From a virus (lineage: Duplodnaviria > Heunggongvirae > Uroviricota > Caudoviricetes): 11,405 nucleotides of DNA. Below the pieces are notes generated by a model. That model was given only the letters and a program-made list of their open reading frames with translations. It was not told where the DNA came from and did not search any database. Positions 1-11,405 of this stretch are shown piece after piece; position 1 is the stretch's first letter; every line of letters starts with the position of its first letter. The stretch lies in the IMG/VR virus record IMGVR_UViG_648276668_000008, positions 1-11,405 of that record. The stretch is one strand, 5' to 3'. The translations under genes were made by a program, and so were the position numbers.

Positions 1-253
1 CACAAGACTCTTCTGCATTCGACGGCGGTTCTAGTCAGTAGTAGATGTTTAAGGCGTGGCAGAGACATTTCATCCTTACTCTACGGCATTGGTCCACATA
101 CAAATCGTGGTTGTGACACTTCACTTATCATCAGTGAGCGAACAGAGAATAGTTCAGTGATTTGAGTAATTAACCTGATTAAATGAAGAGGCATGATAAA
201 TGATAATACTCTGGCTTTATCGTTAATTACTTAATTCCACATGTAAGCAATTT

Positions 254-280
254 GCCCGCTTGGCATAGCGGGCATTTTTT
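254..280 (+). terminator. Rho-independent terminator-like hairpin in the left flank, outside the element
   Basis: Stem GCCCGCT (254-260), loop TGGCAT, stem AGCGGGC (267-273), then A + TTTTTT (274-280). Confidence 0.45.
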
Positions 281-466
281 CCAGGTACTTTTGAATGAGT
301 ACTGATGGATAAATACATTGCAGTGGCGTGCCACGTACCAAAACACCAGCCCTCATTCGAAACTACCTACCGCACTGCTTCTTTAAAATGGCGTTAGTCG
401 TGAAATATTGACCGCCATCGAGTCCCCCTTGTAACCTTAACTCTTCCTGATACGTGAATAATGATT

Positions 467-511
467 TGGTGGCCCTTGCTGGACTTGAACCAGCGACCAG
501 GCGATTATGAG
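467..511 (-). repeat. att direct repeat: ~45-nt fragment matching the 3' part of a tRNA (CAU-type anticodon loop through T-arm and CCA); not a complete tRNA
   Basis: Reverse complement reads ACTCATAATCGCCTGGTCGCTGGTTCAAGTCCAGCAAGGGCCACCA (anticodon loop CUCAUAA, T-arm GCTGG-TTCAAGT-CCAGC, acceptor 3' strand + CCA). Sequence 5' of it cannot form a D-arm or acceptor 5' strand. A second CCA-end copy starts at 11392. From memory it resembles the E. coli ileX/ileY-type tRNA 3' half. Confidence 0.7.
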
Positions 512-618
512 TTGGTTGATAACCCTTTACTTACAGATACTTAGCGATACTTTTCAATACCTTAGCATTTTTTAAAACTACTGTATAAATACCTGTATAT
601 ACCCCAAAATACTTCTTT

Positions 619-669
619 ACGGTATCCTATAGGTATCCTGGAACAGAACAAGCGATTTTCCAGGATACC
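619..669. promoter_or_regulatory. Candidate integrase arm-type binding sites: tandem GGTATCCT-ATA-GGTATCCT plus an inverted copy CCAGGATACC
   Basis: The 21-bp block ACGGTATCCTATAGGTATCCT (619-639) recurs exactly at 11324-11344 near the other end. GGTATCCTGG (632-641) has its inverted complement CCAGGATACC at 660-669, about 25 bp upstream of the int start. Confidence 0.5.
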
Positions 670-692
670 AGATCGCTTGGTGGGGTGTATGA

Positions 693-2126
693 GTGAAATT
701 ATTCAGATTCTCTAAAGTAAAAATTGCAGAACTGCCAACGCCGGAACATGGACAGGTCGAATATGGTGATACGGAGGTTAACGGGCTGCGTGTCCGTGTA
801 GGTTCGTCTGGTGTGAAAAGTTTCTGCATTTCCCGTAAGCGTAACGGAAAATTTATTCGTGCAACGCTGGGGCGTTTTCCTGATCTGAGCGTGGATAATG
901 CCAGGGCTAAAGCTATGGAACTCCTTGGCGAAGTCGCCACAACGGGGATAAATCCGAACATAGCAAAGCGCACTAACAACAAGGCCATGATAACGCTGAG
1001 TGAGGCGATTGACGCCTACGTAAAAAATCGTGGCCACCGCCTGAAACCCTCCACAGAAAAACAGTACCGCAGCATATTACAGAATTATTCCGGTGACTGG
1101 ATGGCCCATACCCTCGCCAGTATTTCCCGCGAACGGGTGGAACAACGGCATAAGGCCATCACTGATGGGGCTGTATGGTTCGGTGCTGATAAAACCACGT
1201 TACGGGCTGGGGTTGGTACAGGAAGCAAGGCACAGGCCGATTTATGGGCGCGTGCGCTGCGTGCCGTGTGTCGGTTTGCGCATGATCATTATCGTGATGA
1301 TGCGGGTAATACTCTTTTACCGGATCCGCCGACGCTGGTACTGAGCACTAAGCGCCAGTGGCACGGAACGGTAAGAAAAACGGAACGTATCCGCCTGCAT
1401 GATTTTTCGCGCTGGTTTGCTGCTGTAGCAGCTGTACGCGACCAGGGCGAACAGAAAAGGGATGATATAGCGGTGACGGTATGTGATGCCGTGGAAATGG
1501 CGCTTTTTACCGGACTGAGAAAATCAGAAATTTTTGGCCTTACGTGGGATCGCGTGAATATGGGCGGTCGTTTTTTCTGGATAGACACCACGAAAAACGG
1601 GGATCCGCTCGAATTGCCGATCACTGATACGTTGCGGGAGATGTTCCGCCGCCGGCTGAAAATAAAAAACGCTGATGATGTTCTGGTGTTTCCTGGTGTG
1701 AAGGGCGTTATTCAGGAGACACGGCACATCATAGACCGGATAAGCGCGGCTACCGTTTCAGAGTCGAACGATGAAATGCTCTCCCCTGTACCATTCAAAT
1801 GGCACGATGCGCGCCGGACGTTCGGAACGGTTGCCGAACTGGTGGGTGTGGGCAATTACATCCTCAAGCGCCTGATGAATCACCGTACTATGCGAAGTGC
1901 TGACGTAACGCAGGGGTATTTACATTTTGGTGCTGATGAACTGCTGGAGCCAGCGTCACGGATAGAACGGGCAATTCTGGAACATGCCGGGCTGGTGGAG
2001 AGTAAAAAATCTATTGATGCGCAATTGATGGCGGTCTTAAACAACCTAAGCGAAGAAGAAAAAAGGAAATTAATTTTTTCCTTATCTACAGATGAGTGTA
2101 ACCAGTTATGGCAGAAAGAAAAATAA
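693..2126 (+). CDS. int: Tyrosine recombinase, P4-type phage integrase
   Basis: 477-aa ORF from GTG 693 with GGTGGGG upstream. N-terminus GLRVRVGSSGVKSF...TLGRFPDLSV...GINPN fits the P4-integrase N-terminal pattern. Catalytic-domain motifs: LFTGLRKSE (box I Arg), WHDARRTF (HxxR), GYLH (Tyr). First gene inside the att repeat. Confidence 0.9.
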   Translation: MKLFRFSKVKIAELPTPEHGQVEYGDTEVNGLRVRVGSSGVKSFCISRKRNGKFIRATLGRFPDLSVDNARAKAMELLGEVATTGINPNIAKRTNNKAMITLSEAIDAYVKNRGHRLKPSTEKQYRSILQNYSGDWMAHTLASISRERVEQRHKAITDGAVWFGADKTTLRAGVGTGSKAQADLWARALRAVCRFAHDHYRDDAGNTLLPDPPTLVLSTKRQWHGTVRKTERIRLHDFSRWFAAVAAVRDQGEQKRDDIAVTVCDAVEMALFTGLRKSEIFGLTWDRVNMGGRFFWIDTTKNGDPLELPITDTLREMFRRRLKIKNADDVLVFPGVKGVIQETRHIIDRISAATVSESNDEMLSPVPFKWHDARRTFGTVAELVGVGNYILKRLMNHRTMRSADVTQGYLHFGADELLEPASRIERAILEHAGLVESKKSIDAQLMAVLNNLSEEEKRKLIFSLSTDECNQLWQKEK

Positions 2127-2845
2127 CAACCCCTGATTATATCATTCACCTTTTTATACGTGAGTTATTTACTTACGGTGATAAAGCCTCTGTTGTACGT
2201 ATAATTAAACGATGCTATGACGATAAAAATAACAAAGGGATAGACGGTTTTACAGAGCTTCTTACAAGTGTAGTTGCGTATTTTGCAAAATCAGCGAATG
2301 CTACAGAGGTTTTTCTTTATTTTATTGGCTTTACGACAGAAAATAAAAAGTTTAAACATCCAGAATTTTTTATCCATCAATTACAGCAAATGGATACTAG
2401 AAAAGAATCTTTTTTTCAGATTGAAAACTTGCCACCAGGCGCAATTAGTGCGTTAAATTCGGCAATCTCACTGTATGCAATAGGAATGAGAAATAATGCT
2501 GATAATCTTGTAAAACTTGGAATATACTTGTTAATTTCAGGGCTTTTTGAAGGTTATCATGTGGATTATGTTTGTGATGAAATATCAAAGCAAGCTATTG
2601 CTGAACATCAAAGAGAAAAAGCAAGCAAACCAAGAAATCATTATTACAATGAAGTTATGCACGTAATTAAATTAACGTGGGAAAAGTACCCTAAAGCCAG
2701 TAAAACAGGTTTATTGAACGAGCTTTCTGTTTACTATCATGGGAAAGTAAGTAAAAACACTCTGGATAAATGGATTAAAGAATCAGGAGCACAACCACCA
2801 AGACCTGATAAATATTCTTCGTTTGAACTTGTTCACCCCCAATAG
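2108..2845 (+). CDS. Hypothetical protein; AT-rich cargo gene with no recognisable family
   Basis: 245-aa ORF whose ATG at 2108 overlaps the int stop by 19 nt. Visibly lower GC than the flanking genes. Mostly hydrophilic, no motif I can name. Confidence 0.6.
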   Translation: MAERKITTPDYIIHLFIRELFTYGDKASVVRIIKRCYDDKNNKGIDGFTELLTSVVAYFAKSANATEVFLYFIGFTTENKKFKHPEFFIHQLQQMDTRKESFFQIENLPPGAISALNSAISLYAIGMRNNADNLVKLGIYLLISGLFEGYHVDYVCDEISKQAIAEHQREKASKPRNHYYNEVMHVIKLTWEKYPKASKTGLLNELSVYYHGKVSKNTLDKWIKESGAQPPRPDKYSSFELVHPQ

Positions 2846-2978
2846 CTGGCTAGTGTATCTTAATAGCTGGCTATTAAGGCTAAATAACTGGTAACCTCCC
2901 CACAGCAACTGGCTATTGGGCTAAAAACAAAATACCCATTGATTGATATTTATCACCGTTGTTACTTAGAAGTACACG

Positions 2979-3197
2979 GTGATAGATATGAATTTAAAGA
3001 AATCTGATTTATCAACTGACCGCCTTACACGTGCTGAAGCTGCTGCCTACCTTGGCGTTAACAATCAAACGCTGGCGAACTGGGCCTGTACTGGCAAGGT
3101 AAAAATCCCTTTCCATAAGCTGGGGCGCAAAGTGCTGTATATGCGCACTGATCTCGATGCTTATCTTGCATCCACTCGCAGAACGCAGACGGTGTAA
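2979..3197 (+). CDS. Excisionase/AlpA-type helix-turn-helix DNA-binding protein
   Basis: 72 aa. LTRAEAAAYLGVNNQTLANWACTGKVKIPFHKLGRKVLYMRTDLDAYL fits the excisionase-family HTH pattern. Start is GTG 2979 or ATG 2988. Confidence 0.8.
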   Translation: MIDMNLKKSDLSTDRLTRAEAAAYLGVNNQTLANWACTGKVKIPFHKLGRKVLYMRTDLDAYLASTRRTQTV

Positions 3198-3544
3198 GGG
3201 GGAGTGATGGCACATAAAACAAAGGCGACCGTAGAGGGCCGCCAGTGGCATAACACTAAACTTGAGCATATCCAGAATACCAGGTTGTTGGCTGGTGGGC
3301 AATGCTATCAGTCTGGCTCGATTCGCTGCCATGCCTGCAATGAGCGTATTTTCCTAGAATACTCTTTAAGGTACTTCTCAAGGATAAACGCACATGGTGC
3401 GAATCTCTCCGGTTCATGTTCGTTTACCGCATTTTTGCGTTGTTTTTTCTTGGATGAGGATAATTTCTTTAATGATTTGTCAGTCATCGTAGATACCTGT
3501 AACCCTGTGCGCCACAGTTCACCGCACCACGGCGCTGGTGATGG

Positions 3545-3724
3545 TTACTCCTGCTCTTTGGCCTTGCGACGCTGGCGGTATTCAACTTCTCGCTTTAATG
3601 CTGCTGTTACAAACTGCCCTGTACTTTCACCAGGCATTTTTACCGCCTCAACATTGTTCATAACTTCATGCGGAACCCTTGCCGCAACTGTTTGTGATTT
3701 TGCGTTTACTGCTTTTGTCGCCAT
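3545..3724 (-). CDS. Small ribbon-helix-helix (CopG/Arc-like) putative repressor, 59 aa; below the ORF-track cutoff
   Basis: Minus-strand ATG at 3724-3722 with AAGGGG 8 nt upstream; stop TAA at 3547-3545. Translation MATKAVNAKSQTVAARVPHEVMNNVEAVKMPGESTGQFVTAALKREVEYRQRRKAKEQE shows a strand / helix / G-x-S-T / helix pattern typical of RHH proteins. It abuts the palindromic operators. Confidence 0.6.
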   Translation of the reverse strand: MATKAVNAKSQTVAARVPHEVMNNVEAVKMPGESTGQFVTAALKREVEYRQRRKAKEQE

Positions 3725-3774
3725 GTTGTGTACCCCTTACAAAAAACAAATGCAGTATGCAGGAAAAAAAATAA

Positions 3775-3826
3775 GTGTTCAACACTTGACGTGTTTAACA
3801 CCTGGATTTAAATTGGTGTTCAACAC
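3775..3826. promoter_or_regulatory. Divergent promoter/operator region with three 11-bp palindromes GTGTT(C/T)AACAC
   Basis: Copies at 3775-3785, 3791-3801 and 3816-3826. A sigma70-like -35 TTGACG (3786-3791), 17-bp spacer and -10 TAAATT (3809-3814) read toward the Icd-like gene and are overlapped by the palindromes. Confidence 0.6.
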
Positions 3827-3923
3827 CTTGTTGATGCAAGGTGCAGAAACGACGAAACCCGGCAGTGCGCTAACACTAACCGGGCTTCTAACCACCAACG
3901 ATAGAAAGCGTATCGAGGTAGCT

Positions 3924-4127
3924 ATGAGAAATCATACCACACACCCGCAAGGGCGGGACTCGCACGACCTGAATAAATACATCTGGCGTTTTATCGCCCT
4001 GAGCACCGCACAACCGCGCGTGATTCACATCGTGGCCACCAGCGAACAGGAAGCACGCCAGCAATCCCCGGCTGGCTGCGTGATGGTATTCGCCGCCCGT
4101 ATTCGTCAGGGGGTGTGCCATGCCTGA
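3924..4127 (+). CDS. Icd-like small protein (P4-type host cell division inhibitor family)
   Basis: 67-aa ORF, ATG 3924 with GAGGTA upstream. KYIWRFIALSTAQPRVIHIVATSEQEARQQ...VMVFAARIRQG resembles Icd-like proteins of P4-type elements (from memory). It is the in-frame C-terminal end of the 307-aa track ORF 3204..4127, which I regard as spurious. Confidence 0.65.
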   Translation: MRNHTTHPQGRDSHDLNKYIWRFIALSTAQPRVIHIVATSEQEARQQSPAGCVMVFAARIRQGVCHA

Positions 4128-4440
4128 TATGTCAAATTACCAGTACCTGATTAATCCGCATTTTAACTGTGAGCATGATATTGCTAAAAAGGTTTATTCC
4201 GCTGCGGATGGGGCTACTGACAATATATCAATGGCTGTTGCGTCAATTGGTAGCCTGATGTGGCATGCGTCAGAAAATGAGGAATATGACGAAAAGGCCA
4301 TGCGCATTGATATGGGTAATATCGGTTTGTTACTGGCAATGCTTGGACATTTTGATATTTCGTTACGGTGCACCATTGAAAATGCCACAGATGCATTAAA
4401 TGCTATAAAGAAAGCGAATACTGATTCAAATCGGGGATAA
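4120..4440 (+). CDS. Hypothetical protein
   Basis: 106-aa ORF; AGGGGG upstream; start overlaps the Icd-like stop (ATGCCTGA). Acidic, no recognisable motif. Confidence 0.55.
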   Translation: MPDMSNYQYLINPHFNCEHDIAKKVYSAADGATDNISMAVASIGSLMWHASENEEYDEKAMRIDMGNIGLLLAMLGHFDISLRCTIENATDALNAIKKANTDSNRG

Positions 4441-4446
4441 ATAATC

Positions 4447-4746
4447 ATGAGAACGTATTTATCTGGCTTGACTGCCAGCGGTTATGCACACCCCCAAATT
4501 ATCCCCGGCGCTATTTATCTGGATAAGAACGGTAACAGAGTAACGGTAAAAGAACTGATGTTTGACCGTGTGTATTTTATTCGTGATGGCTATTCATTTC
4601 ATAGTTCGCTGAACGTGGAGATCTTTATTAGCAGATTCAGGCGGGAAATCCCGCTTTCCAGAAATAACCATGTGTCACGTGTGAATGTGGATAAAAAACT
4701 ACAGGAACTGAAAAACATGATTGCCGCGTGGAGAGAGCAGAAATGA
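4447..4746 (+). CDS. Hypothetical protein
   Basis: 99-aa ORF with GGGGAT upstream; its stop overlaps the primase ATG (ATGA at 4743-4746). Confidence 0.55.
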   Translation: MRTYLSGLTASGYAHPQIIPGAIYLDKNGNRVTVKELMFDRVYFIRDGYSFHSSLNVEIFISRFRREIPLSRNNHVSRVNVDKKLQELKNMIAAWREQK

Positions 4747-6560
4747 AAAAAGCGCCAAATTTAAAACACCAGCCACGTGACAAAATGACGGAAGTCATCA
4801 TTTTTGCGGGTAGTGATGCGTGGGCACATGCGAAGCAGTGGCAGGAACAGGACGGGCGACTGGCTGGCGATAACGTGCCTCCTGTCTGGCTTGGAGAGCA
4901 ACAACTTGCCGAACTGGACAACCTGCAAATCGTACCGGACGGACGCTATCGCGTGCGTCTCTATCAGGCGGGGTTATTGCGTCCGGGGCTTGTTAATACC
5001 ATCGGGCAGAAACTGGCAGCGGCAGGTGTCAGGGATGCTGATTATTACCCTGAAGGAATGCACAGCCAGAAACGGGAGAACTGGCGCGAATATCTGGAAC
5101 GTGAACGGGCAGAGCAGGCGGAAAAGAAAAAGGTAGTTGAACTGCCTGTAAAGAAAAAAGAGCGGGTAAAAGACGATAACGCTTCATCACTGGCGCTTAA
5201 CCAGATGGGAGCAAGTCAACGCGGCGAAGTTCTCCTGGCACATTATGGCGGTGAACTGGCGATTCATGCTGACTCTGACACTGTTCACCATTACAACGGC
5301 GTTGTATGGGAGCCAGTACAGGATAAAGAATTACAGCGAGCTATGGCACAGATTTTCATTGATGCGGAGATCAGCTATTCGCAGAACGCCATTAAATCGG
5401 CGGTCGATACCATGAAGTTAAGTTTGCCTGTAATGGGGAATACAGCCCGTAACCTGATTGGATTCAGTAACGGGGTATTTGATACCAGAACAGGTAATTT
5501 TCGGGGGCATAACAAAAACGACTGGTTGTTAATTGCCAGTGAATTACCTTTCAGCCCACCAGCAGAGGGGGAAACACTGGCAACACATGCGCCGAATTTC
5601 TGGAAGTGGTTACGCCGTTCGGTGGCTGAGAATGACCGCAAGGCAGATCGCGTACTGGCGGCATTATTCATGGTGCTGGCGAACCGGTACGACTGGCAGT
5701 TATTCATTGAGGTAACAGGGCCGGGGGGAAGTGGTAAAAGCGTGATGGCGGAGATTTGCACCATGCTGGCGGGTAAGGCTAATACAGTATCAGCAAGCAT
5801 GAAGGCGCTGGAAGATGCAAGGGAACGTGCGTTAGTGGTTGGCTTTTCGCTGATTATCATGCCGGATATGACCCGCTACGCTGGTGATGGGGCAGGGATT
5901 AAGGCCATTACAGGCGGTGACAAGGTGGCAATTGACCCGAAACACAAAGCCCCCTACTCAACGCGTATTCCGGCAGTAGTGCTGGCGGTTAACAATAACG
6001 CCATGTCATTCAGTGACCGCAGCGGGGGGATCTCACGTCGTCGGGTGATATTCAATTTTTCGGAAGTTGTACCGGAGAACGAACGCGATCCAATGCTGGC
6101 GGAAAAAATAGAAGGTGAGCTGGCGGTAGTGATTCGCCATCTGCTTACACGGTTTGCTGACCAGGACGAAGCCAGACGCCTGTTATATGAGCAGCAGAAA
6201 TCTGAAGAAGCACTGGCGATAAAGCGAGAGGGGGATTCGCTGGTGGACTTCTGCGGCTATCTCATGGCGTCGGTAATGTGTGATGGCCTGTTAGTGGGTA
6301 ATGCTGAAATTGTGCCATTCAGCCCACGCAGGTATCTCTATCATGCCTATCTGGCTTATATGAGGGCACATGGGTTTGGTAAACCTGTAACACTGACGCG
6401 CTTCGGTAAAGATATGCCGGGGGCAATGGCGGAATATGGCAGGGAGTATATGAAACGGAAAACGAAGCACGGTTTGCGTTCAAACGTGACACTGACGGAG
6501 GAATCAGAAGACTGGATGCCATCATGTGTATCGGTCACTAATGACGACAGCAAAAATTAA
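4743..6560 (+). CDS. P4-alpha-like primase / replication initiator (D5/SF3-type NTPase); the satellite pri-rep gene
   Basis: 605 aa from ATG 4743 (GGAGAG upstream, ATGA overlap with previous ORF); the frame is open from GTG 4728. Walker A VTGPGGSGKSV and a possible Walker B LIIMPD. Followed directly by the iteron origin. Confidence 0.8.
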   Translation: MKKAPNLKHQPRDKMTEVIIFAGSDAWAHAKQWQEQDGRLAGDNVPPVWLGEQQLAELDNLQIVPDGRYRVRLYQAGLLRPGLVNTIGQKLAAAGVRDADYYPEGMHSQKRENWREYLERERAEQAEKKKVVELPVKKKERVKDDNASSLALNQMGASQRGEVLLAHYGGELAIHADSDTVHHYNGVVWEPVQDKELQRAMAQIFIDAEISYSQNAIKSAVDTMKLSLPVMGNTARNLIGFSNGVFDTRTGNFRGHNKNDWLLIASELPFSPPAEGETLATHAPNFWKWLRRSVAENDRKADRVLAALFMVLANRYDWQLFIEVTGPGGSGKSVMAEICTMLAGKANTVSASMKALEDARERALVVGFSLIIMPDMTRYAGDGAGIKAITGGDKVAIDPKHKAPYSTRIPAVVLAVNNNAMSFSDRSGGISRRRVIFNFSEVVPENERDPMLAEKIEGELAVVIRHLLTRFADQDEARRLLYEQQKSEEALAIKREGDSLVDFCGYLMASVMCDGLLVGNAEIVPFSPRRYLYHAYLAYMRAHGFGKPVTLTRFGKDMPGAMAEYGREYMKRKTKHGLRSNVTLTEESEDWMPSCVSVTNDDSKN

Positions 6561-6572
6561 ACTTATGGAATA

Positions 6573-6797
6573 ACTGTTCACCACTGTTCACCCTGTCATA
6601 AATATCTTTTATATCAGTATATTATAGGGTGAACAGTTATTTATGAACTGTTCACCAAACTATTCACTGTTCACCTTTTTGATTGTTTATTGAGCTTCAA
6701 GGGTGAACAGTGGTGAACAGTTGGTGAATAGTTTTTGTGAAACTGTTCACCCCTTAACATTATGAATTAAAAGAGAAAATATCAAAAGGTGAACAGG
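6573..6797. repeat. Replication-origin-like iteron array: at least 9 copies of ACTGTTCACC in both orientations around an AT-rich spacer
   Basis: Forward copies start at 6573, 6583, 6647, 6666, 6742; reverse copies (GGTGAACAGT) at 6628, 6702, 6712, 6788; degenerate copies near 6658 and 6723. AT-rich stretch 6593-6627. Sits between the primase and the next gene. Confidence 0.8.
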
Positions 6798-6847
6798 TGA
6801 AGGGTTAAAACGCAAAAATTTTAATTTACTGCTGTGAGATAAAGCCT

Positions 6848-7093
6848 ATGACAGCGAAGCACACAAAAAAATCACAATCGCACGCCCTTGATTTGACGGA
6901 ACACTGGTTAAGGGTGTCGATAAAAATCATCGACCGCAACGCCGGGGAAGGATATGCGAAAGCACATCCCGAACTGATTAGCGCATTCATGACAACGGCA
7001 GCTGCAAACTTTGCCACGCTGACAGAACGGGAGATTGCCGAAGCGGAACAGGTGACAACCATCAACGTTAAAACTGGAGAGCAGACAGCATGA
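6848..7093 (+). CDS. Hypothetical protein
   Basis: 81-aa ORF; stop overlaps the start of the SSB-like gene (ATGA). Confidence 0.5.
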   Translation: MTAKHTKKSQSHALDLTEHWLRVSIKIIDRNAGEGYAKAHPELISAFMTTAAANFATLTEREIAEAEQVTTINVKTGEQTA

Positions 7094-7431
7094 CAGCACA
7101 GATAGCGGCTTACGGGCGGCTGGTGGCTGACCCGCAGTTAAAGACCACCAGCAAGGGTACACAAATGACGATGGCTAGTATGGCGGTCCCCCTTCCGTGC
7201 AGCCAGGCAGATGACGGAACGGCGACGATGTGGTTATCCGTCCTGGCGTTTGGCAGACAGGCCGACGCACTGGCAAAACACCACAAAGGCGAACTGGTGA
7301 GCGTGGCGGGTAACATGCAGGTAAGCCAGTGGACAGGCCAGAACGGCGAAACGCGGCAGGGCTGGCAGGTTATCGCAGACAGTGTAATCAGTGCCAGAAC
7401 GGCGCGACCGGGCGGCAAAAAAGGTCAATAG
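7090..7431 (+). CDS. Single-stranded DNA-binding protein-like (OB fold only, no acidic C-terminal tail)
   Basis: 113 aa. GRLVADPQLKTTSKG...WLSVLAFGRQAD...GELVSVAGNMQVSQWTGQNGETRQGWQVIADSV parallels E. coli SSB GNLGQDPEVRY...WHRVVLFGKLAE...[22 protein letters not shown] (from memory). Confidence 0.7.
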   Translation: MTAQIAAYGRLVADPQLKTTSKGTQMTMASMAVPLPCSQADDGTATMWLSVLAFGRQADALAKHHKGELVSVAGNMQVSQWTGQNGETRQGWQVIADSVISARTARPGGKKGQ

Positions 7432-7529
7432 GGCCAGGCTACTGACGCACTGAACAGGGCAAAACAACAGTCGGGGAATGATGATCCGTACGGCGATAAT
7501 ATACCGTTTTAAATTCTGCAAATAAAAAA

Positions 7530-7558
7530 ATGCCGGAAGAAAATAGATTTTCCGGCAT
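7530..7558 (-). terminator. Terminator-like hairpin with a U-run only on the minus-strand side
   Basis: 9-bp stem ATGCCGGAA (7530-7538) / TTCCGGCAT (7550-7558), 11-nt loop. On the minus strand it is followed by TTTTTTTATTT (complement of 7519-7529); on the plus strand no T-run follows. Confidence 0.4.
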
Positions 7559-7729
7559 GCTACATAAATCCCGACCAAAGGAAGTAAATACATTAACACG
7601 AATTATCAGCACTGAAGTTGTCACGGCAGATTTTATACAACATTGCACTTGGTTGCATGTATTCGCATAGCAAATATCGGTGATAGCATATATCCACAAT
7701 TATTTTTAATGAATGCAAAGAGGATGCGT

Positions 7730-8770
7730 ATGGTTGATTTATATTCGCCTGCCCAGCTTGTGCAGGTGGCTAATGCTGAAGATGTGCAAAAAAAATTAAA
7801 TGCGTTGTTTACCAGTTTGTTTTTCACTCGCTCGGTAATGTTTGAATCGAGAGACATTATTCTTGATACGATCGACGATCCAAATATCCCGATCGCGGCG
7901 TTTTGCTCTCCTATGGTGGGCAGTAAGGTTTCACGAGATGAGGGATACGAATCAAAAACAATTCGCCCTGGCTATATGAAACCGAAAAGCAGCATTGATC
8001 CAAATAAGTTAGCTGTGCGCCCTGCTGGTGTGTCACCTGAGCAATACAATGCTTTTGGGGCGCGTAATATTAAAGTTAAACAGGCGATTGTAAATCAGGC
8101 TAAAGCTATTCGTGCACGTATTGAATGGCTTGCTGTTCAGGCAATCACAACGGGGAAAAATATCATTGAGGGCGATGGTATTGAACGTTATGAGCTGGAC
8201 TGGAATATAAAACCACAAAATATTATCACGCAGTCTGGCGGTGCTGAGTGGTCAGGTAAGGATAAAGAAACTTTTGATCCAAATGATGATATTGAGAGCT
8301 ACGCAGAATTTAGTGAGGGCGTCACTAATATCATCATTATGGGCGGTAATGTATGGAAGAAATACCGTTCATTCAGAGCGATAAAAGAGGCTCTGGATAC
8401 CCGTCGTGGTTCTAATTCCGAACTGGAAACGGCCCTTAAAGACCTTGGTGATTCGGTGAGTTTTAAAGGGTATATGGGCGATGTTGCGATTGTTGTTTAC
8501 AGCGGACGTTATACCGACGAGGACGGAACTGAAAAACATTTCCTTGATCCTGATTTGATGGTGCTTGGCAATACGGCTCTTCAGGGGATTGTCGCCTATG
8601 GCGGTATTCAGGATCCGGAGCTAATCCGAATGGGGCTGACTAAAGCCGAACTTGCACCGAAAAACTATATTGTGCCTGGTGATCCGGCTATTGAGTACGT
8701 ACAAACGCACTCTGCACCACAGCCAATACCGGCCCGCATCAATCGTTTTGTTACCGTTCGCATTGGCTAA
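7730..8770 (+). CDS. Major capsid protein, lambda gpE-like
   Basis: 346 aa from ATG 7730 (AAGAGG 6 nt upstream; frame open from 7643). Blocks ITQSGGAEWSGKDKETFDPNDDIESYA and LDTRRGSNSELETALKDLGDSVSFKGYMGDVAIVVYSGRY parallel lambda gpE (ITQSGGTEWSKRDKSTYDPTDDIEAYA; LDTRRGSNSELETAVKDLGKAVSYKGMYGDVAIVVYSGQY). Length is similar to gpE. Confidence 0.9.
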   Translation: MVDLYSPAQLVQVANAEDVQKKLNALFTSLFFTRSVMFESRDIILDTIDDPNIPIAAFCSPMVGSKVSRDEGYESKTIRPGYMKPKSSIDPNKLAVRPAGVSPEQYNAFGARNIKVKQAIVNQAKAIRARIEWLAVQAITTGKNIIEGDGIERYELDWNIKPQNIITQSGGAEWSGKDKETFDPNDDIESYAEFSEGVTNIIIMGGNVWKKYRSFRAIKEALDTRRGSNSELETALKDLGDSVSFKGYMGDVAIVVYSGRYTDEDGTEKHFLDPDLMVLGNTALQGIVAYGGIQDPELIRMGLTKAELAPKNYIVPGDPAIEYVQTHSAPQPIPARINRFVTVRIG

Positions 8771-8779
8771 GGGGGAGCA

Positions 8780-9121
8780 ATGGCTACTCATTACACTGAA
8801 CTCATGTCTGGCACTGAAGCACTGGTTACTACGCTGGGGATATTTTCAGCCAATAAAGGGATAATACCTGCGTTTACGCCACTGATGCAGGAAGATGCAA
8901 CTGGTGCGCTAGTGGTATGGGATGGAACGAGCGCAGGCAAAGCGGTTTATGTTTCCGCTGTACAAATCGACACAGCGAAAAAAACACAGGCACAGGTTTA
9001 TAAGACAGGTGTTTTAAATGTTGATGCTCTGAACTGGCCTGAGTCTGTAAAAGAACTGTCGGCAAAGGTTGCCGCGTTTGTTGGCTCAGGTATTTCTGTT
9101 CAGCCGCTGGCTCGTGTGTAA
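8780..9121 (+). CDS. Head decoration protein, lambda gpD-like
   Basis: 113 aa, AAGGGGGAG upstream. TPLMQEDATGALVVWDGTSAGKAV...YKTGVLNVDALNWPE...AAFVGSGISVQ parallels lambda gpD ([24 protein letters not shown]...YKSG...LWPE...AFAGTAISIV). Immediately follows the gpE-like gene. Confidence 0.85.
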   Translation: MATHYTELMSGTEALVTTLGIFSANKGIIPAFTPLMQEDATGALVVWDGTSAGKAVYVSAVQIDTAKKTQAQVYKTGVLNVDALNWPESVKELSAKVAAFVGSGISVQPLARV

Positions 9122-9132
9122 AGGGGGATACA

Positions 9133-9516
9133 ATGCAGAATCATTACAATGACCTTAAGCCAATTGCCGAAATGATGTATCCGGATCCAGCAGTAGAGGA
9201 ATTAAAGGCTATTGCTGACAAAATGCGTTTAAGTGAACGCCTTGTTGATATGAATCAGGTGATGGAAATTACTACCCTTAGCCGTCGCACATTGCTAAAC
9301 CTTGAGGCTCGCGGAGAGTTCCCCGAACGCGTACAGGTTACGGAAGGGCGTAAGGCCTGGTATTTAAGCGAAGTGATCGACTGGATAAACAATATTCCTC
9401 GCGCTTCTGAATATTGCCGCGTACCTGTCCCAAAAAAGCCAGATGCGGCGCTATGCCTCAAGATTGAGCGTGTACGCCGCAATGCACGGGATGGTCGCTA
9501 TAAGTTGATTGGTTGA
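9133..9516 (+). CDS. AlpA-family transcriptional regulator (HTH) with an N-terminal extension
   Basis: 127 aa, AAGGGGGA upstream. VDMNQVMEITTLSRRTLLNLEARGEFPERVQVTEGRKAWYLSEVIDWI fits the AlpA-type HTH pattern. Confidence 0.8.
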   Translation: MQNHYNDLKPIAEMMYPDPAVEELKAIADKMRLSERLVDMNQVMEITTLSRRTLLNLEARGEFPERVQVTEGRKAWYLSEVIDWINNIPRASEYCRVPVPKKPDAALCLKIERVRRNARDGRYKLIG

Positions 9517-9572
9517 TGAAATTAGGGCCCGTTCTGGCTGGCGGGTCCTTTCCGGCGATCCGGTAGGCTACG

Positions 9573-9614
9573 GGGCGGCGACCTCGCGGGTTTTCGCTAT
9601 TTATGAGCATTTTC
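9573..9614. other. cos site: lambda-type cosN (12-nt cohesive end GGGCGGCGACCT) with adjacent conserved sequence
   Basis: 9573-9606 matches the left end of phage lambda as I recall it for 34 of 34 nt (GGGCGGCGACCTCGCGGGTTTTCGCTATTTATGA), and 40 of 42 through 9614, then diverges. It lies ~120 bp upstream of the Nu1-like gene, the same arrangement as lambda cos-Nu1. Confidence 0.8.
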
Positions 9615-9732
9615 AGGGGGCTGGTGGTGGTTTTGTTGTTCGCTCTATCTCTATGAATAAGAAGAGAAAAATACAATCAATACACCAACCTGAAACAGTA
9701 ATTAAGTTGTGGTATCAATGAAATTGCACCTG

Positions 9733-10260
9733 ATGAACAAAAAAAACATGGCAAAAAGTTGCCGTGTAAGCGCCACTGCGTTTGATAAGTGGGGAGTGAT
9801 TCCCGTCGAGCGTAAGGGCCGTGAGGCATTCTATGATGTTGCCAGTGTAATAGATAATCGGGTTAACAATGCAATTAGCCAGATTACAAACGAAACGGGC
9901 GATATTGATGACGATGAACTTTTACGCGTCAGGATCAGATTACTGACAGCACAGGCAGAGGCGCAGGAGCTTAAAAACGAGCGCGAACGCGGCGACGTTA
10001 TTGATACAGAGTTTTGTATGTATGTTCTTTCCAAACTGGCGAGTCAGATTTCATCTATCATGGACAGCCTGCCGCTTACCATGCAAAGGCGCTTCCCACA
10101 GATGACTCCGGCTATGCTGGATGGACTTAAAAAGGAAGTGGCTAAAGCCTGTAATGCCAGTGCCGGAGTTGACGACAACCTCCCGCAGATACTGGCTGAT
10201 TACCTGATGGAAACTACCGGAAATGTGCCGGATAAGTTGCAGCCGAATAAAGACAAGTAA
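9733..10260 (+). CDS. Terminase small subunit, lambda Nu1-like
   Basis: 175 aa from ATG 9733 (frame open from GTG 9709). RLLTAQAEAQELKNERERGDVIDTEFCMYVLSKLASQISSIMDSLPLTMQRRFPQ parallels lambda Nu1 RLTRAQADAQELKNARDSAEVVETAFCTFVLSRIAGEIASILDGLPLSVQRRFPE. The N-terminal region (NKKNMAKSCRVSATAFDKW) also aligns with the Nu1 N-terminus. Confidence 0.85.
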   Translation: MNKKNMAKSCRVSATAFDKWGVIPVERKGREAFYDVASVIDNRVNNAISQITNETGDIDDDELLRVRIRLLTAQAEAQELKNERERGDVIDTEFCMYVLSKLASQISSIMDSLPLTMQRRFPQMTPAMLDGLKKEVAKACNASAGVDDNLPQILADYLMETTGNVPDKLQPNKDK

Positions 10261-10271
10261 CGTAGCGCACT

Positions 10272-10556
10272 ATGACAGAATCTGAATTGCTGGGATTAAT
10301 CCGCCGCGTTACCGGAATCAAACAACCATCAAGCAAACAGGAGGCCACGCAGCCGGACAGCGTGATAGCCGAAAATTACGCGCGTGTGGTGGCTGAGATG
10401 ATGCGCCGTGACGGTATCGAGCTTAACGGCGTGGATATGCGCGACATACGGATCAGAGTCCTTGAGTTGCTGGCATACCGTCGCCGTTCTCAACAACGGA
10501 GGGAGAGCGCGAAAAATACTTACCAGTGGAGGAAGCCGGAACGGTTGCGGCGGTAG
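10272..10556 (+). CDS. Hypothetical basic protein downstream of the small terminase gene; possible packaging accessory
   Basis: 94-aa ORF with an Arg-rich C-terminus and weak RBS. Sits where a large terminase would be expected, but is far too small to be one. Confidence 0.5.
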   Translation: MTESELLGLIRRVTGIKQPSSKQEATQPDSVIAENYARVVAEMMRRDGIELNGVDMRDIRIRVLELLAYRRRSQQRRESAKNTYQWRKPERLRR

Positions 10557-11345
10557 ATTCCTGATATTCAGGAAAACCACGAATCTGTGGGGTTTACTGG
10601 CGCGGTTACGGCGGTGACACGCACCGAGGCAGAACAATTACCGTAGGTTAAAGCGACAGTATTCACACCAAAGGCAGAAATTAGCGGTTAACGTAACTGA
10701 CTGATATTTTCGGGAACAGCCAACGGCTGAGGCCGGAGCTATAAAAATAGCTTTGGGTACAGTCCTCAGTTTTGAGGGATGTTAACCAACTGAATAATAA
10801 GCAAAGCTCAAAATTGAGTTTTGTATCTGCCTGAGTTATTTCTGTGCTAACTTGCTGATATTCCCGATAACGCAAAATTGCGTTGGCTGGTGGGTGAGTT
10901 GCAGATCTGCAACTCGACCATGAAATTACGGAAACTACCCGTAGTTTGGGTAGTAAGAGCAACACCCAGATTTTGGGGCTTACTCGCGATACCCAAATAC
11001 AGGGGATCGGTGGAAGAAATATCGTTTCTCATATGTGAGTACCGAGGGCGGAATTCCGCCTTCGGTTACTTATTGTGCTCATGCACAGGGAGGGGCGGGT
11101 CAAATCTCTGTACCCTGACGTCTTCCGGACTGCCAGCCCCATCGATTTTTTATACCCGCGAAAAATGAAAAACGCTTCACGCTGGTGGGTCTGATGCCGA
11201 TATGGGGATCCACATAACGGATTATCCGTGATCATCGACCAGCTATCATGTCGGATAGTTAAAGTTTCATGACAGGTATGATGTTGCGTAACTTGTTGTT
11301 TTTATACCTGCTTATACTCTGTCACGGTATCCTATAGGTATCCTA

Positions 11346-11383
11346 GAAAAAACGAAGGGGTCACGCTGTTAACGTAACCCCTT
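11346..11383 (-). terminator. Rho-independent terminator for the minus-strand tRNA
   Basis: Minus-strand hairpin AAGGGGT-(15 nt)-ACCCCTT (11355-11383) followed by CGTTTTTTCT; begins 8 nt downstream of the tRNA CCA end. Confidence 0.65.
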
Positions 11384-11391
11384 GATAGATA

Positions 11392-11405
11392 TGGTGGCCC
11401 CTGTT
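11392..11405 (-). tRNA. 3' end of a tRNA gene, truncated by the window edge; integration target
   Basis: Reverse complement of 11392-11405 is AACAGGGGCCACCA, which differs at two positions from the CCA end of the 467-511 repeat (AGCAAGGGCCACCA). A terminator follows on the minus strand. Confidence 0.5.

Follow-up and report, generated by a model that had tools for sequence, protein, structure and literature searches.

That tyrosine integrases replace the 3' half of a tRNA gene is textbook knowledge dating back to P4, HP1, and 186. P4 encodes a tyrosine integrase with the same type of N-terminal arm-binding domain as the integrase described below, its int gene is transcribed away from the adjacent att site, and its attP carries a replacement tRNA 3' end. 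In P4-type islands at leuX and other tRNA genes, int adjoins the complete tRNA gene and is co-oriented with it.

Anticodon-centred sites (type 'A') account for 2083 of the 3919 islands in Islander, compared to 1836 at T-stem sites. Phage 186 uses both ileY and ileX (PMC3448106), and the supplement of a 2023 study (PMC10111431, Supplementary Files 3 and 4) gives attL and attR of two E. coli ileX insertions, Eco12671.21.M and Eco6270.21.M, which were mapped with TIGER/Islander and contain the identity block ACTCATAATCGCTTGGTCG. According to the same study, the complete tRNA lies in attL of tRNA-targeting elements, attL is upstream of int in satellites, and the fragments lie in attR. The attP of helper-embedded PICIs (HE-PICIs) contains a doubled 8-mer, tgTGTATTGCantgTGTATTGCa, at 81 and 132 bp from the crossover, and whether Int or AlpA binds it was left open (PMC10111431).

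The window analysed here, the whole stretch of 11,405 nt, is identical to bases 1-11405 of GL884224.1 (assembly GCA_000176615.2; L017), of which bases 1-12126 were fetched. It begins in host DNA beside the tRNA gene ileY and then enters an inserted element with a tRNA fragment at its left boundary. We conclude that this fragment was very probably made when a PICI-type phage satellite of about 10.9 kb integrated into ileY by tyrosine-integrase site-specific recombination. On this reading, tRNA-Ile2 positions 31-76 are present in the satellite attP as a separate copy with an intrinsic terminator behind it, and strand exchange takes place in or next to the anticodon loop, at positions 31-42. Integration then joins the host 5' half and the satellite 3' half into a complete chimeric tRNA gene at the right end (11392 onward), and the host 3' half stays at the opposite boundary, 181 nt upstream of the divergent int gene. 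The arm-binding domain of Int probably contacts the doubled motif GGTATCCT and its catalytic domain the core; if the element is active today, excision would probably reverse the reaction with help from the HTH_17 or AlpA protein.

The mechanism is standard, the att site was already catalogued in the PMC10111431 supplement, and no new mechanism is proposed. What is added here is the insertion at ileY, a 12-nt crossover interval, the cause of the imperfect repeat, and the gap at the window end, together with a conserved GGTATCCT arm motif and an element-supplied terminator. The window element resembles Eco12671.21.M and Eco6270.21.M in its left arm, which reads gtaagtaaagggttatcaacca directly before AC at the junction, in its right end, where ccacca is followed by tatctatcaaggggttacgttaacagcgtgaccccttcgttttttctaggatacctatagg, in its element-type T arm, and in an identity block that starts at A31. 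By contrast, those two insertions are in ileX and are 21-kb composites without alpA and with a nested HE-PICI in a Clp-protease gene (PMC10111431), whereas the window element is in ileY, is 10.9 kb long, and has an AlpA-family gene and no Clp protease that we could find. Compared to P4, int here adjoins the displaced fragment, the tRNA gene points into the far end of the element, and no psu, sid, or delta gene was found.

The displaced ileY fragment and the empty site

The features that define the two ends of the insertion are as follows.

1-466, no strand assigned: host chromosome downstream of ileY, on the ypjC side; 100% identical to E. coli 'isolateA' (L003) and to strain SCEC020023 (L004), and adjoining ypjCB in both
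467-512, minus strand: displaced host 3' part of ileY, the fragment-side junction (attR in tRNA orientation); 46/46 against the 'isolateA' ileY
501-512, minus strand: strand-exchange interval ACTCATAATCGC, tRNA positions 31-42 (anticodon loop and 3' anticodon stem), from single-base differences between host and element
513-11391, plus strand for the assigned genes: integrated PICI-type phage satellite of about 10.9 kb, as classed from Pfam and from the RefSeq annotation of relatives
11392-11405, minus strand: final 14 nt (positions 63-76) of the chimeric tRNA-Ile2, whose 3' half comes from the element; the tRNA-side junction (attL in tRNA orientation), cut short by the scaffold gap; identical to the complete-tRNA 3' ends in GL884224.1, L001, L002, and L016

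The first-pass annotation had read positions 467-511 as a 45-nt piece of a tRNA gene, running from the anticodon loop (CUCAUAA, anticodon CAU) to CCA, and had proposed that it marks the boundary of an element whose int gene lies next to it and is transcribed away. The reverse complement, CTCATAATCGCCTGGTCGCTGGTTCAAGTCCAGCAAGGGCCACCA, does run from this loop through the variable loop, the T arm, and the acceptor 3' strand to CCA, and the identity to ileY extends one base further, to A31 at window position 512, to give a 46-nt block. On the minus strand, 467-512 corresponds to positions 31-76 of tRNA-Ile2 (CAU) and matches the complete ileY of the empty-site strain 'isolateA' at 46 of 46 positions, an agreement too long and too exact for a chance origin. 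Identity to ileY stops at 512/513, and element DNA begins at 513. The fragment has the same orientation (minus strand) as the complete tRNA gene described below and lies downstream of its 3' end. ARAGORN reported 0 tRNAs in the window alone, as is to be expected with one incomplete copy and one truncated to 14 nt.

Window 1-512, the left flank with the fragment, has matches in more than 3000 complete E. coli genomes; among the matches listed, it mostly runs straight into an annotated complete tRNA-Ile gene. In 'isolateA', which is 100% identical over 1-512, ypjCB, the tRNA-Ile gene, and an alpha-amylase-family gene stand in an unbroken row; this row is the ileY locus, and K-12 has the same arrangement, also empty. 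The join in 'isolateA' is exact: window 1-512 is contiguous there with the segment found in GL884224.1 from 12032 to the end, which holds the tRNA 5' half and its flank. An uninterrupted attB in a reference genome thus joins exactly at the repeats, as the first-pass annotation had anticipated of an empty-site strain. Together with the complete tRNA gene on the right side and the alignment of the two copies, this join supports the proposed boundary, and we conclude from the match that 467-512 is the host's own ileY 3' part, pushed aside by the insertion of a phage satellite.

The position of the crossover can be narrowed with one host polymorphism. Both the 'isolateA' ileY and the fragment have C43, the rebuilt tRNA gene has the element-type T43 alongside the host A28, and element identity to the tRNA begins at A31, which together place the crossover within positions 31-42. 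As read from this one informative polymorphism (position 43) in one lineage, strand exchange took place around the anticodon loop. The block common to both junctions in E. coli insertions generally is ACTCATAATCGCTTGGTCG, positions 31-49 (19 nt), and the host polymorphism cuts it to 12 nt. The att site is of the anticodon-centred type, with identity from A31, a crossover between 31 and 42, and a replacement segment that reaches CCA. The satellite ends are therewith fixed: the inserted DNA is 513-11391 plus the 46-nt replacement segment. Such defined ends are useful for annotation and for the design of attB, attP, and excision assays.

The ileY allele of the window lineage combines A28 with C43 and has an A28-C42 mismatch in the anticodon stem (L003:2967-3042; host part of GL884224.1:11986-12061). 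It scores 67.4 bits on the Rfam tRNA model compared to 73.8 for K-12 ileY. In some genomes (H34, H90), a 'tRNA-OTHER' is annotated under the match to the ileY region.

The right end, the scaffold gap, and the chimeric tRNA gene

On the minus strand, the right edge of the window (11392-11405) reads AACAGGGGCCACCA, compared to AGCAAGGGCCACCA in the fragment, so the second copy differs at 2 of the last 14 nt, just as first described. The window ends at 11405 because a scaffold gap of 258 N (11406-11663) follows directly in GL884224.1. Past the gap lies a complete tRNA gene (CAU) on the minus strand (GL884224.1:11986-12061; ARAGORN; 64.1 bits on Rfam tRNA). The 322 nt between the gap and this gene repeat the right end of the element (window 11070-11391). 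Relative to the window, the first approximately 75 nt past the gap have transposed bases and small indels found in no relative, whereas the remaining stretch of about 250 nt (about 11150 to 11391) has no differences. The gap is probably spurious, that is, two contig ends that overlap over the same DNA and were left unmerged. A look-up of the ORF at 10878-11168 for an independent contig across the gap returned nothing.

In the relatives L001, L002, and L016, the right end of the element runs unbroken into a complete tRNA-Ile2 gene. L016 encodes an identical Int protein, and its DNA is about 99% identical to the window element over most of its length. The expectation of an intact tRNA gene immediately to the right of 11405 therefore holds for the complete gene, and the word 'immediately' is borne out in these close relatives only; in this assembly the 258-N gap intervenes.

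Aligned over their full length, the fragment is of the host type and the rebuilt 3' half is of the element type. Within this genome, there are 6 mismatches between the two copies over the 46 nt, at tRNA positions 43, 50, 59, 60, 64, and 67 (window 500, 493, 484, 483, 479, and 476). The element-type 3' half has the T arm GTTGG-TTCAAAC-CCAAC and the acceptor strand AGGGGCC, compared to GCTGG-TTCAAGT-CCAGC and AAGGGCC in the host, and the T-stem differences are compensatory. Exact copies of the element-type 45-mer are present in 114 stretches that represent many genera of Enterobacterales, among them Kluyvera, Kosakonia, Klebsiella, Serratia, Dickeya, Pectobacterium, and Edwardsiella. Of 117 matches to it, about 91 are complete tRNAs with a normal 5' half, and the satellite motif lies downstream in only 7. 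We conclude from this distribution that the tRNA-Ile2 3' half of the satellite is a version common in genera other than Escherichia. The repeat is imperfect in E. coli because the E. coli T arm differs from the satellite's copy; in a host whose tRNA has the same sequence as that copy, the terminal repeats would be perfect. Thus, the imperfection noted at first is real, and its cause is a 3' half foreign to E. coli and not decay. Decay of the repeat in an old insertion was rejected as an explanation, since the differences are exactly those between tRNA-Ile2 of E. coli and of other Enterobacterales and are compensatory in the T stem.

The rebuilt tRNA gene is a chimera of a host 5' half, with the A28 allele of this lineage, and an element-type 3' half. 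Rebuilt tRNAs score 64-72 bits on the Rfam tRNA model, compared to a gathering score of 29. For annotation, this means that 467-512 is not a pseudo-tRNA and that the neighbouring tRNA gene is a chimera. Integration swaps the 3' half of ileY or ileX for a foreign one with another T arm and, at ileY, a U6-G67 wobble; in the window lineage, the chimera adds a G27-U43 pair to the existing A28-C42 mismatch. It is conceivable, but a long shot, that the chimeric tRNA-Ile2 is altered in lysidine modification, aminoacylation, or AUA decoding, with changed host translation or a satellite-linked cost or benefit as a consequence. If so, the reversed polarity described below (antisense tRNA transcription and int beside the fragment) could be an adaptation and not a neutral layout.

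Integrase, attP arms, and terminator

The features of the two attP arms and of the candidate recombination proteins are as follows.

513-692, plus strand: int-side arm of attP; shares conserved blocks with the aligned relatives from Kosakonia and Kluyvera
621-639, plus strand: doubled motif GGTATCCTataGGTATCCT on the int side, candidate integrase arm-type sites; exact 8-mers at 621 and 632, an invariant island in the alignment
662-669, minus strand: third GGTATCCT copy, inverted; exact match, +150 from the fragment end in the window and between +148 and +150 in relatives
693-2126, plus strand: tyrosine integrase of 477 aa with an N-terminal arm-DNA-binding domain (PF13356 Arm-DNA-bind_3, E = 2.9e-13; PF00589 Phage_integrase, E = 3.9e-14)
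2979-3197, plus strand: small HTH_17 protein (PF12728, E = 1.4e-11), candidate excisionase or directionality factor
11326-11344, plus strand: tRNA-side counterpart of the doubled motif GGTATCCTataGGTATCCT, in the same orientation as 621-639; exact 8-mers at 11326 and 11337
11346-11383, minus strand: predicted intrinsic terminator for the rebuilt tRNA gene, a hairpin at 11383-11355 followed by CGTTTTTTCT (terminator scan)

The int gene is flanked by the fragment, 181 nt from its start, and by the tRNA gene on the far side, and its transcription leads away from the fragment, in agreement with the first description. Its product has both the arm-binding and the catalytic domain of a heterobivalent tyrosine integrase; candidates for the catalytic R-K-H-R-H-Y residues, picked by inspecting the translation, are R276, K301, H371, R374, H397, and Y409. 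With a complete tRNA gene at one end, past the gap, a co-oriented displaced fragment, an integrase gene between the two, and an exact attB join, the insertion fits the Islander/TIGER definition of a tRNA-gene-integrated genomic island. L016 and a second insertion, L018, both at ileX, encode an identical Int protein. In every relative examined, from several genera but of the same Int clade, int lies beside the displaced fragment, and transcription of the tRNA gene enters the far end of the satellite, antisense to the satellite genes. Relative to the order in P4-type islands and in the elements of PMC10111431, this layout is reversed: with respect to int, the attP core has the rarer of its two orientations, for which no new mechanism is required.

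The ileY locus of strain SCEC020023 is occupied by a 186-like prophage of the P2 family (L004:16467-32513). Like the satellite, this prophage targets ileY, has its int toward the fragment end, and displaces a fragment that ends at the same base. It differs in that its integrase has 334 aa and is transcribed toward the att site, and it is a full phage of more than 16 kb, the far end of which lies outside the fetched locus. Relatedness of the satellite Int to this integrase was rejected, as BLASTP against the L004 prophage integrase detected no similarity (E = 1.3); it appears that integrases of two lineages have converged on a single core.

E. coli A33 (L020; NZ_CP028742.1:4240719-4269095) carries at least three related satellites arranged head to tail, with internal junctions of the attP type, in an assembly with many frameshifted genes and low sequence quality. 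We rebuilt attP in silico by placing the element-type 46 nt between the right end and the left end of the element; the resulting 377-nt sequence was found whole, at 99.2% identity, as an internal junction of the A33 array. This match therefore validates the reconstruction.

Five exact copies of GGTATCCT occur in the window, at 621 and 632 (plus strand), 662 (minus strand), and 11326 and 11337 (plus strand). All lie within about 160 nt of the element ends, compared to a chance expectation, by our own estimate, of approximately 0.35 copies per window. The doubled motifs are approximately 98 nt (tRNA side) and approximately 122 nt (int side) from the centre of the anticodon loop. The int-side copies are at +109 and +120 from the fragment end in the window. 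Kosakonia arachidis, Kluyvera sp., and K. georgiana, whose Int is 74-77% identical, have them at +109/+120 or +110/+121, within DNA that is otherwise diverged. The tRNA-side arm has just one long conserved block, CGGTATCCTATAGGTATCCT, in Pectobacterium, Symbiopectobacterium, Kosakonia, Serratia, Kluyvera, and Rosenbergiella; its variation amounts to a single substitution, in the 3-nt spacer of one sequence. A more distant relative in a Raoultella MAG (L127; Int 59% identical) has three G(G/A)ACCCCC repeats in place of GGTATCCT, about 100-150 nt from the fragment, which is consistent with arm sites that co-vary with the integrase. The arrangement also resembles the HE-PICI attP in its tandemly doubled 8-mer with 11-nt periodicity, present as one doubled copy per attP arm, co-oriented, and at fixed distances. 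It differs from the HE-PICI attP in the motif itself (GGTATCCT), in an extra inverted copy on the int side, in belonging to another integrase clade, and in having a tRNA gene rather than a phage late gene as its target.

The predicted terminator hairpin begins 8 nt past the CCA end on the tRNA strand, is supplied by the element, and is kept in relatives by compensatory changes. A scan for sigma-70 consensus sequences over 300-720 found no int promoter, which should lie within the int-side arm (513-692).

Because of the conserved motif positions and the Arm-DNA-bind_3 domain of Int, the GGTATCCT copies are probably arm sites of the integrase. The doubled motif might instead be bound by AlpA, the HTH_17 protein, or another regulator or directionality factor; the same choice between Int and AlpA was left open for the analogous HE-PICI motif (PMC10111431), and the int-side copies overlap the expected int promoter region, where they could serve as operator sites. 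However, Int does have an arm-binding domain, and occurrence in both arms, co-oriented and at fixed distances from the core, is the classic layout of arm sites. Moreover, the motif changes once Int identity falls to 59%, although accessory proteins could have changed as well. We consider binding by another protein unlikely, but a serious competitor to the reading of GGTATCCT as integrase arm sites.

The boundary itself can be explained in other ways. In a tandem array, 11392-11405 would be an internal attP-type junction, with a second satellite hidden or collapsed at the gap and the rebuilt tRNA gene after it. The A33 arrays, of the same satellite family, show precisely this sequence at their internal junctions, the element right end is present a second time past the gap, and both PICI tandems and att duplications around blocks of N are reported in PMC10111431, where the latter are treated as assembly artefacts. 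However, the post-gap copy is identical over approximately 250 nt and differs only in its first approximately 75 nt, which resemble a poor-quality contig end; the gap is estimated at 258 nt and not 11 kb, and single insertions are the rule in the genomes examined. An array at this locus is thus quite improbable, and even then 467-512 would still be its outer boundary. A different proposal is that the fragment is a relic of an earlier ileY occupant, such as a 186-type prophage, and was not made by this satellite, since the prophage in L004 leaves an identical fragment that ends at the same base, and phage 186 is known to use ileY and ileX (PMC3448106). Against this origin, 86 E. coli insertions, distributed over two loci, and insertions in other genera all have the fragment joined to the conserved left arm of the satellite at one and the same base, there is no foreign DNA between fragment and arm, and the tandem-array junction places the 46-nt segment in the satellite's own attP. 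A relic of an earlier occupant is hardly credible in comparison with integration of the satellite itself into ileY.

Gene content, distribution, and possible exchange of the late module

The remaining assigned ORFs of the element, all on the plus strand, are as follows.

After int in the gene list, plus strand: 245-aa ORF without a family hit in the profile scan
3924-4127, plus strand: Icd-like ORF
4447-4746, plus strand: DUF4222
4728-6560, plus strand: D5-type primase (D5_N/DUF5906/Pox_D5)
7090-7431, plus strand: single-strand binding protein gene (SSB)
7643-8770, plus strand: capsid protein, lambda-E-like (Phage_cap_E)
8780-9121, plus strand: decoration protein, D-like (HDPD)
9133-9516, plus strand: AlpA (PF05930)
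9709-10260, plus strand: Nu1-like small terminase TerS (Phage_Nu1)

The starts of the HTH_17, capsid, and TerS ORFs are the first in-frame start codons, and the gene calls start later. Class was assigned from Pfam gene content, set against the published SatelliteFinder definition, by which a Gram-negative PICI has an integrase, a regulator (AlpA, MerR, or Stl), a primase-replicase, a capsid-morphogenesis gene, and a small terminase (PMC10085698). All five components are present: Int, AlpA with HTH_17, the D5-type primase, Phage_cap_E with HDPD, and Phage_Nu1. The Pfam scan of 17 ORFs, several of which gave no hit at all, found no portal, protease, large terminase (TerL), tail, holin, or head-tail connector or adaptor family. 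As read from its gene content, the element at 513-11391 is a Gram-negative PICI-type phage satellite. Membership in the cfPICIs, which are defined by a large terminase, a portal, and a head-tail adaptor and connector, was rejected, as none of these families was found with Pfam. A P4-like satellite, for which the criteria were a psu-delta-sid operon, epsilon (ash), and an alpha primase, was likewise rejected: there was no hit to Psu, Sid, or Delta, and only the D5-type primase, the Icd-like ORF, and AlpA are shared.

Among 5426 complete E. coli genomes, the fragment with the left-arm junction was found at ileY in 11 and at ileX in 75. In NZ_OY757949.1, the left-arm junction is apparently present at both ileX and ileY (about 691186-691430 and 1111551-1122577).

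Several smaller features of the element were also recorded. PICI origins have been reported just downstream of the primase gene, and a cluster of direct and inverted GGTGAACAG(T) repeats lies in this position, at window 6559-6796; it is a candidate replication origin with iterons. On the minus strand at 3851-3923, a sub-threshold match to the Rfam SymR antitoxin RNA (32.8 bits, where the gathering score is 61; E = 0.0046) adjoins the Icd-like ORF at its start and may represent a structured antisense or leader RNA, or chance. The SSB ORF has 113 aa in the window compared to 140 aa in L001, L002, and L016, which may reflect a truncation or a homopolymer error in the draft assembly. Within the long non-coding right end (10557-11391), a stretch of approximately 280 nt (10570-10847) has no counterpart in L016, L001, or L002; the cos sites of other PICIs have been reported in such a right-end region.

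The late module at 7090-10556, which comprises SSB, capsid, decoration protein, AlpA, TerS, and a 94-aa ORF, also occurs in islands beside clpS/clpA and thiM/thiD-like genes (L006-L015). A look-up of the 94-aa protein did not return the ileY junction, and the protein is identical in the clpS/clpA- and thiM/thiD-adjacent islands. This distribution suggests that the late module is exchanged among satellites that use other insertion sites.
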